This document shows positions 9,287 through 9,530 of a stretch of 34,343 bases of DNA, piece after piece. Position numbers and translations under genes: made by a program. The number at the start of each line of letters is the position of its first letter. Positions within the stretch are counted from its first letter, which is position 1. The stretch is taken from UHGV virus genome UHGV-0071249. One strand, 5' to 3'. The stretch comes from a virus. A model generated the notes under the pieces. The model worked only from the letters and a program-made list of their open reading frames with translations. It was not told the DNA's origin and made no database searches.

Positions 9287-9495
9287 TTTGGATATTCCTT
9301 CTTGAACGGCAATGTGTATGTGCTTGCAATGTTACATTGTAATAATGATCAAGTAAAATGAAATGTAAGTGCTTTTAATCAACCTAATTAAGTGAAACTA
9401 ATAATTTAGGTACTCCTCCAGCCTGATTATCAACGCGAGTTTTCGGCACCGATTGCTTTCAATTGTATGTGACATTTTAGATGTACACAAAACAT

Positions 9496-9530
9496 AGTCC
9501 TCCTGATAAATAAGTCAGGAGGACTTTTTT
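9496..9530 (+). terminator. Perfect 11-bp stem hairpin plus T6 ending at the terS start codon; the right arm contains the terS Shine-Dalgarno (AGGAGG)
   Basis: AGTCCTCCTGA (9496-9506) / TCAGGAGGACT (9515-9525), loop 8 nt, TTTTTT 9525-9530, ATG at 9531. Confidence 0.5.

Follow-up and report, generated by a model that had tools for sequence, protein, structure and literature searches.

Shine-Dalgarno (SD) occlusion and intrinsic termination, taken singly, are textbook elements of gene control. Two phage systems gate a late function in this way until a phage factor acts: at lambda pR'-tR' a terminator is overcome by Q antitermination, and at Mu mom an SD-occluding hairpin is relieved by the translational activator Com. 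In T4, an inhibitory hairpin occupies the translation-initiation region of genes e (lysozyme), soc, 49 and I-TevI and a late promoter lies in its 5′ strand, such that long transcripts are silenced and the productive mRNA starts within the structure and lacks the 5′ strand (PMC3014915). None of the literature that we searched describes an SD-occluding terminator located between cos and terS.

We analyzed a stretch of 34,343 nucleotides (UHGV virus genome UHGV-0071249, hereafter the window), an uncharacterized, lambda-like, prophage-like element of ~34 kb from E. coli (Table 1). A copy that is 99.8% identical to the window element lies within ybhA in E. coli G3/10 and is damaged by IS; in that copy, the RefSeq start of terL is at the position equivalent to 10135. 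The DUF3800 gene and terS are separated by 244 bp and are divergent, as the first-pass annotation of this DNA had stated. TerS is distantly Nu1-like and has an N-terminal HTH: its family profile aligned to lambda Nu1 with an hhalign probability of 77% (E 2e-5), and Pfam Phage_Nu1 matched TerS below the cut-off only. We gathered TerS relatives from genomes, viral contigs, metagenomes and assemblies; in the index of the assembly collection, 564 blocks contain exactly the TerS sequence of the window. Neither the DNA nor the TerS protein had a related phage in an isolated-phage collection (the sole TerS match, in Serratia MQ-4, was partial and weak, and the top TerL identity was 33%), which left no sequenced virion from which to take the genome termini. 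Neither Rfam families nor tRNAs were detected anywhere in the window. Packaging in this element family is probably lambda-like, of the cos type; recognizable repressor, Q and replication genes were not found.

Table 1. Features of the window, with positions counted from its first nucleotide
Feature	Position	Strand	Remarks
Large serine recombinase	61-1914		
Few small unassigned ORFs			After the serine recombinase
Cargo genes: STM2901-family, DUF1493, Hcp		+	
Cargo genes: RipA/8xMP membrane protein, then DUF3800		-	
DUF3800 gene, divergent cargo (moron)	8165-9286	-	Pfam DUF3800; PHROG 12991
Repeated motifs GCAATGT (9309, 9326) and TGTATGTG (9315, 9464)	Region 9309-9332	+	
Palindrome TTACATTGTAA	9332-9342		Within the DUF3800 cargo cassette
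AGGTACTCC, first element of the conserved block	9408-9416	+	cosQ-like heptamer; high information content in 61 variants
Spacer, 17-18 nt	9417-9434	+	Length conserved, sequence variable
GCGAGTTTTCGGCACCG, GC-rich core	9435-9451	+	Strongly conserved; candidate cosN region
TATGTGA (TRTGTGA in the family), 3′ element of the block	9466-9472	+	Fixed distance from the GC core
Sigma-70-like match GTGACA-18-CATAGT	9469-9498	+	9/12; predicted start ~9505, inside the 5′ arm
TACACAAAACATAG, clade-specific conserved element	9484-9497	+	Candidate TerS-binding site; bp 50-63, counted from the first base of the GC core
Hairpin 5′ arm AGTCCTCCTGAT	9496-9507	+	Anti-SD sequence
Hairpin loop AAATAA	9508-9513	+	6 nt
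Hairpin 3′ arm GTCAGGAGGACT	9514-9525	+	Contains SD AGGAGG (9517-9522)
T6 tract	9525-9530	+	Directly 3′ of the stem, up to the start codon; scored terminator-like
terS, small terminase subunit (193 aa)	9531-10112	+	PHROG 57, E 2e-17
terL, gpA-type large terminase	10027-11940	+	Pfam GpA_ATPase 7e-50, GpA_nuclease 3e-44
Lambda-type portal, protease-capsid fusion, lambda-like tail genes, J-like tip protein			Downstream of terL
Lysozyme, GIY-YIG ORF, 3TM holin			After the tail genes
HAD phosphatase			Right end of the window

Immediately upstream of the terS ATG (9531), we observed a perfect 11-bp stem followed by a T6 tract, with the SD sequence in its right arm, exactly as the first-pass annotation had described it and at coordinates 9496-9530. 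The stem consists of 11 Watson-Crick pairs and a closing U-G; AGGAGG is entirely paired within it, and five U of the tract lie beyond the last stem pair. The SD-to-ATG spacing is 8 nt, and the AUG is outside the stem, 6 nt 3′ of it. The folding that the annotation had proposed gave a stable stem, with a minimum free energy of -21.4 kcal/mol versus -8.0 ± 2.5 kcal/mol for shuffled sequences (z -5.3; none of 200 shuffles was as good). A palindrome with arms of at least 11 occurred in 0.1% of 1000 dinucleotide shuffles of 9287-9530. When folded in a 210-nt context, the hairpin was the dominant local structure, and no competing structure was found.

The annotation had further proposed that the hairpin has the form of a terminator and masks the ribosome-binding site (RBS). 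Both parts agreed with what we observed: all sequence features of an intrinsic terminator are present (a G+C-containing stem within the range of ~5-14 bp, a loop within the 3-8 nt range and a U-rich tract immediately 3′), a consensus SD is fully occluded, and by all criteria of sequence the stem-loop equally qualifies as an SD-sequestering translational operator. Among the terminator-like sites in the window's left half it ranks as the strongest; such sites are enriched there about twofold (19 versus 9.2 in shuffled sequences). Its 12-bp stem (6 G-C pairs), 6-nt loop and U6 immediately 3′ are those of known intrinsic terminators; it differs from them in that it directly precedes a start codon, its 3′ arm also serves as the RBS, and most variants lack a same-strand upstream gene. 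As in the T4 e-type design, the SD is predicted to be buried in a stable helix of long transcripts initiated upstream. Here, however, a U-tract follows the helix, so that termination is expected too, and the AUG is outside the stem. Lambda itself has no hairpin over the Nu1 RBS.

We then followed the hairpin among relatives of the window's TerS. It was limited to one lineage, whose TerS starts with MPKTRTNK or MSKTRTNK and is 72-100% identical to that of the window, and which contains nine distinct leader sequences with three stem variants. Compared with the window, variant 2 carries G-C to A-U, U-A to G-U, C-G to U-G and U-G to U-A, and variant 3 carries C-G to U-G and U-G to U-A. Across the three variants, pairing was standard in all 36 stem pair cells, although five of the 12 pairs vary and two are altered on both sides; the seven substitutions all preserve pairing, several via G-U. 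The 5′ arm of relatives differed only by such pairing-preserving changes, and CAGGAGG was invariant in all nine distinct sequences of the hairpin clade. A shuffle control for covariation, which with three variants only was not significant, gave 57/500. These compensatory and wobble changes suggest that the stem is maintained by selection.

The substitutions also differ in their effect on the two strands. Folded as plus-strand RNA, the three variants gave -20.9, -16.1 and -17.7 kcal/mol, whereas their complements gave -19.5, -10.2 and -13.7 kcal/mol; the plus-strand RNA stays stable because several of the stem changes create G-U pairs. This points to terS-sense RNA as the selected molecule, rather than a symmetric DNA site or a minus-strand RNA, and the stem-loop at 9496-9525 is probably a selected RNA element on the terS-sense strand. 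Outside the lineage, the leaders appear open. Among the other leader types of the TerS family (~28 clusters), folding of a 56-nt stretch around the start codon gave no more than 0 to -9 kcal/mol, and by this comparison the hairpin is a marked, derived and lineage-specific exception in its TerS family. In a Rahnella relative (L230; TerS 64% identical), ACAAAACATA, ATAAGT and GGA are kept in this order, and the anti-SD arm is absent.

The terminator-like form might have a simpler meaning: the site could end transcription in the ordinary way, or be a palindrome that arose by chance, and play no part in terS expression; it could, for example, be a boundary terminator for occasional plus-strand cargo upstream. 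Terminators at module boundaries are common in this element, given the twofold enrichment and sites such as 32523-32545, after the holin; the genes upstream of the hairpin in one relative, L222, are on the plus strand, and an overlap with the SD might be tolerated if terminase is needed in small amounts only. However, the pairing-preserving substitutions indicate selection on the stem, and in most variants the hairpin is placed after no gene. Moreover, by our estimate, a -21 kcal/mol stem over the SD should nearly abolish initiation, and an essential packaging gene would then be silent unless the stem is bypassed. The estimate builds on the dependence of initiation on stem stability that de Smit and van Duin are said to have established. 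We consider an ordinary terminator or chance palindrome quite unlikely.

To place the hairpin in its surroundings, we aligned the related loci on terS. Similarity started abruptly at AGGTACTCC (9408), next to the end of the DUF3800 cassette at ~9407, and the cargo further upstream was unrelated. From 61 distinct aligned variants, we derived the layout of a conserved block. Its first element, with the consensus AGGTWCTCC, is conserved across the 61 variants at ~26-27 bp before the GC core; the core itself has the consensus GCG(T)AGTTT(T)CGGCASCG and is separated from the TRTGTGA element by an AT-rich stretch. Further 3′, TACACAAAACATAG is conserved in the hairpin clade and in Rahnella and overlaps the beginning of the 5′ arm; in other clades, CCCGAAACG or ACCCGCACCGCA takes this place, with the distance to the GC core unchanged (bp 50-63). 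In nearly all related loci, the plus strand carries the GC core ahead of terS, at a distance of either 52-136 or 655-800 nt. The orientation of the block is constant, and in about one-third of the loci, those with the spacing of 655-800 nt, one minus-strand ORF lies between the block and terS. The hairpin, at the terS-proximal edge of the block, fills the last 35 bp before the ATG, which is at bp 97 from the GC core.

This layout resembles that of lambdoid cos sites. The identity of the cosQ sequence reportedly goes back to Wieczorek and Feiss (2001). In lambda, the order is GGGTCCT, 23 nt, the nick, GGGCGGCGACCT and CGCGGGTTTTCGC. For a lambda-type cos site, a cosQ heptamer would be expected ~24-30 bp upstream of the left nick, and a TerS-binding R site that co-varies with TerS specificity at ~47-65 bp from the nick. 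The AGGTACTCC element agrees with GGGTCCT at 5 of 7 positions and precedes the conserved GC-rich core by ~27 bp, a spacing comparable to that between GGGTCCT and the lambda cohesive end; the core, GCGAGTTTTCGGCACCG, resembles lambda bp 13-25, CGCGGGTTTTCGC, which matches CGCGAGTTTTCGG at 11 of 13 positions. By our estimate, ~0.4 such matches are expected by chance between regions of this size, and we used this likeness only jointly with the conserved spacing. cosQ is a conserved 7-bp site, and among lambdoid phages cosQ, cosN and I2 are conserved and cosB is variable (PMC4669245). Lineage-specific elements here occur at bp 50-65, the position of the lambda R3 site (PMC9026076). In N15, terS starts at bp 89 (PMC9026076; PMC4669245), compared with bp 97 here, and, as in both lambda and N15, conserved non-coding sequence immediately precedes the terminase genes, in this family a distantly Nu1-like terS and a gpA-type terL. 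Because of the lambda-like spacing, the distantly Nu1-like TerS and the gpA-type TerL, we regard the region from 9408 to ~9497 as a good candidate for the cos region and think this assignment likely.

There are differences from lambda as well. The conserved block lacks the 12-nt lambda-like cohesive end GGGCGGCGACCT, the core GCGAGTTTTCGGCACCG is without evident twofold symmetry, and about one-third of the relatives have a minus-strand gene between the block and terS. Since GGGCGGCGACCT is absent, the block falls outside the lambda cohesive-end group as defined in PMC4669245 and may be a cos site of another type. When we scanned viral contigs for the 14-mer GCGAGTTTTCGGCA, most matches were chance matches, and no contig ended at the motif. 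A small inverted repeat just 3′ of the GC core (CGATTG/CAATTG) had changed once in an apparently compensatory way but was broken in two other variants, so we discarded it; the conserved TGTGA region was compared with the CRP (TGTGA-N6-TCACA) and IHF consensus sequences, and neither fitted across clades. The first-pass annotation had read 9287-9530 simply as a late-operon leader. That description was not supported: the greater share of its conserved part (9408-9472 and onward) is arranged like a lambda-type cos site.

Given this position, the 12-bp inverted repeat might instead act as double-stranded DNA, as a part of cosB that binds a TerS dimer or a host bending protein, with the RNA hairpin as a by-product. 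The repeat spans bp ~62-91 from the GC core, within the interval of lambda-type TerS-binding sites, the N-terminal HTH of TerS aligns to Nu1, and the repeat is restricted to one TerS lineage, similar to cosB specificities (PMC4669245). The substitutions, however, make the two DNA half-sites unequal yet keep the RNA paired through G-U, and TerS proteins that are 72-79% identical would need to tolerate changes in both half-sites. Furthermore, the 3′ arm is a consensus SD at the correct spacing and is followed by a T-run, features that matter to RNA and not to a DNA site. We therefore judge a DNA-level function to be very unlikely as the main explanation of the repeat.

The first-pass annotation had also pointed to a palindrome and to repeated GCAATGT and TGTATGTG motifs, at about 9325-9345, as candidate operators. 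The motifs are present, but their proposed role was not borne out. In dinucleotide shuffles of 9287-9530, palindrome arms of at least 5 occurred with P = 0.088, repeated 7-mers with P = 0.34 and repeated 8-mers with P = 0.45; an AT-rich stretch of 244 bp yields such motifs, and they are therefore at chance level. The three relatives with the DUF3800 cassette each have one mismatch in the palindrome, on different arms, and two of the three have lost the second GCAATGT copy. At loci with other cargo, the hairpin is the same and the palindrome and repeat motifs are absent. By these comparisons, the motifs are not part of the terS control region but belong to a variable cassette, and nothing marks them as operators.

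We next considered how terS could be expressed from behind the stem. In one explanation, a leader attenuator as the first-pass annotation had suggested, late transcripts started upstream contain the stem, and a phage-encoded antiterminator and/or an RNA-remodeling factor, similar to lambda Q or Mu Com, is needed for read-through and for opening the RBS. The terminator shape and the SD occlusion are real, and most relatives lack a convincing promoter between cos and the ATG, which makes lambda-like read-through across cos plausible; three ORFs without an assignable function (2352-2504, 2592-3083 and 3152-3637) could encode the factor. However, antitermination alone would leave the SD locked in the stem of -21 kcal/mol, and a second activity would have to free it. 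Q-, Com-, Ogr-, Mor/C- and RinA-type families and other recognizable regulators were absent from all window ORFs in searches of Pfam, PHROGs and NCBIfam, and by sequence the unassigned early ORFs had no matches in PDB or NCBIfam. The annotation's remark that a lambda Q-like antiterminator is lacking thus agreed with our searches, while the late activator that it had proposed to look for among the early genes did not emerge as any recognizable candidate family.

The leader itself offered no means of opening the stem either. A riboswitch or attenuator leader was not supported, as we found no competing antiterminator fold (210 nt), no Rfam match and no conserved leader ORF. A mini-ORF (ATG 9481 to TAA 9513) crosses the 5′ arm and stops in the loop; we rejected it as a leader peptide because its ATG is not conserved, being replaced by AAG, AGG or ATT in three of five upstream sequence types. 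Unlike in Mu com-mom, where a small zinc-finger activator binds 5′ of the inhibitory hairpin, there is no upstream overlapping activator ORF: no plus-strand ORF lies immediately upstream, and the nearest gene is on the minus strand. Neither a Q-like nor a Com-like gene was found here, which sets the locus apart from lambda and Mu, and the hairpin precedes terS and not, as in the lambda Q system, the lysis genes. Finally, the stem arose in a TerS family whose other members use open leaders. Taken with the regulator searches, these observations make an attenuator of this kind unlikely to us, though the least so of the alternatives weighed here.

We also searched for promoters. Only one promoter-like site, at chance level, was seen on the plus strand upstream (9331-9359). 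A sigma-70-like match to GTGACA-18-CATAGT, closer to terS, has its predicted start inside the 5′ arm. Such matches occur in the window at chance frequency (62 found versus 64 expected), and the -35 and -10 hexamers overlap the TGTGA block, the R3-position element and the stem, which are conserved otherwise, a caveat for any internal start. The -10 hexamer is CATAAT in the hairpin-less Rahnella relative and CATAAG in L009, where the key final T is lost. When we folded an RNA starting at 9505, it was unstructured and its SD was exposed. In this respect the locus is again similar to the T4 e-type genes, in which a start within or after the 5′ strand gives an open mRNA; the internal promoter here is, however, a weak sigma-70-like match and a candidate only, in a temperate lambda-like prophage without T4-type late machinery.

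We reasoned that the hairpin might be both a terminator and a translation lock on terminase expression, bypassed by an internal start, and we tentatively put this forward at slightly less than even chances. Transcription that came in from the variable cargo, or passed over cos, would end at the U-tract, and any RNA that escaped termination would have its RBS closed by the -21 kcal/mol stem. Leaky terminase expression would thereby be blocked, and the prophage's own chromosomal cos would be spared from cutting; as with the genes protected in T4, the product is one that would be harmful if mistimed. Productive terS mRNA would start inside the hairpin, past most of the 5′ arm, and would be missing the anti-SD strand. 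What we infer, beyond the observed structure and its conservation, is that the region upstream is cos, that the hairpin works as a lock and, most of all, that transcription starts within it. Our preference for an internal start follows from the lack of a visible stem-opening mechanism, whether a fold, an Rfam match, a leader ORF or a regulator gene: it needs the fewest assumptions and, requiring no extra factor, fits the data at least as well as read-through does. One caveat to the lock is that a perfect DNA palindrome in the cos region could be a protein-binding site instead.

The internal start would also offer a route by which the stem evolved. The simplest way would be insertion of an arm upstream of an existing start, and the 5′ arm could evolve without killing the phage, because sequence upstream of the start affects only read-through RNA. 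In this manner, terminase would be insulated from transcripts that originate in the cargo region, where genes are exchanged often. Loci with an identical hairpin differ in their upstream cargo neighbor, and this fits an insulator at a recombination-prone boundary. The nearest upstream genes in the window are on the opposite strand, which may limit the read-through that there is to block. If the lock model is true, the prophage would protect the host chromosome from its own terminase, with cargo read-through stopped and silenced at the last possible position, and the T4 design of a promoter within an inhibitory hairpin would extend to temperate cos phages. The comparison also yields a candidate cos site, with a map of conserved versus lineage-specific subsites, for widespread and unstudied prophages of Enterobacterales, whose packaging specificity and late control become directly testable. 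None of these results overturns present understanding.

A further reading concerns the loop. The motif ATAAATA (9506-9512) covers the final stem pairs and the loop; it occurs upstream of terS in 17 of 32 leader types and is under-represented in the window overall. It is a doubtful candidate for a dispersed late promoter: the 10 copies found in the window have no extended consensus in common, and several simply coincide with stop codons where two genes meet. In some relatives, ATAAATA abuts the SD, a position incompatible with a -10 element. Nonetheless, the hairpin and its loop motif might be what can be seen of a late switch not described so far, operating in a family without recognizable regulators; to this speculation we give only a small chance. 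Unlocking would then come from a promoter embedded in the terminator, possibly of an ATAAATA type and read by an element-encoded factor, or alternatively from a new RNA-opening or antitermination protein encoded by ORFs 2352-2504, 2592-3083 or 3152-3637. Read by eye, the product of the first of these ORFs is RHH-like.

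We found the heptamer ATAAATA in the loop of the terminator-like stem-loop that occludes the Shine-Dalgarno sequence of the small terminase gene, terS, and 17 of the 32 clustered leader types upstream of terS had the same heptamer 11-35 nt ahead of the start codon (named related loci: L189, L198, L206, L213, L037, L211, L225, L227 and L232). The leaders that carry it represent at least six unrelated sequence contexts. Across the whole window ATAAATA was under-represented, with 10 copies versus 18.6 expected. Possible roles for the heptamer are an AU-rich translation enhancer and a -10-like or late-promoter element; its sequence is similar to that of the T4 late promoter, TATAAATA.

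In about one-third of related loci (class ii; for example, L014, L023, L039 and L051), a minus-strand ORF of ~187 aa, which received no family assignment, separates terS from the conserved cos-like block, a non-coding segment read as a probable cos site. In these loci, ATAAATA accompanies terS rather than the cos-like block. A PLD-domain gene occupies the same position in L225, L227 and L232. Because the inserted gene splits the cos-like block from terS, the gene order implies that terS in such loci must have its own promoter within the 30-110-nt gap.

On the upstream side of cos, the neighboring gene is entirely different among otherwise near-identical elements, marking the cargo cluster between the early region and cos as a hotspot for cargo exchange. 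The ~970 bp between the 8xMP and DUF3800 genes (7196-8164) contained no convincing ORF and gave no Rfam match.

Features of the window and of a related locus
Feature	Position	Strand	Remarks
ATAAATA heptamer	9506-9512		hairpin loop
ORF between cos-like block and terS	L219 6500-7063	-	
Cargo cluster	5176-9286		
STM2901-family, DUF1493 and T6SS Hcp genes	in cargo cluster	+	
RipA/8xMP octameric membrane protein, then DUF3800 gene	in cargo cluster, after Hcp	-	
Strong terminator-like hairpin	3091-3119	-	between ORFs 2592-3083 and 3152-3637
Very strong 17-bp stem (8 G-C pairs), then TTGCTTTTCT	22043-22081	+	between tail-assembly-chaperone-like ORF 21708-21998 and ORF 22055-22384
Endonuclease-like ORF	2592-3083		PHROG match, HNH-endonuclease family
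Endonuclease-like ORF	30880-31308		SegE-type GIY-YIG

The 34-kb element (window 1-34343; also L218, the E. coli G3/10 copy, NZ_CP060075.1) carries full sets of head, tail and lysis genes together with a serine integrase, and no repressor, replication or antiterminator gene was recognizable anywhere in it. Its holin matches Pfam GTA_holin_3TM. Possible identities for it are an unusual minimal temperate phage and a GTA-like or defective element. The HAD pyridoxal phosphatase gene at its right end may replace ybhA, the gene that the element disrupts.

The 17-bp stem may act as an attenuator within the tail-chaperone region or be a structure associated with frameshifting there. Read by eye, the C-terminal half of the HNH-endonuclease-like ORF appears to be an AP2-type DNA-binding segment.
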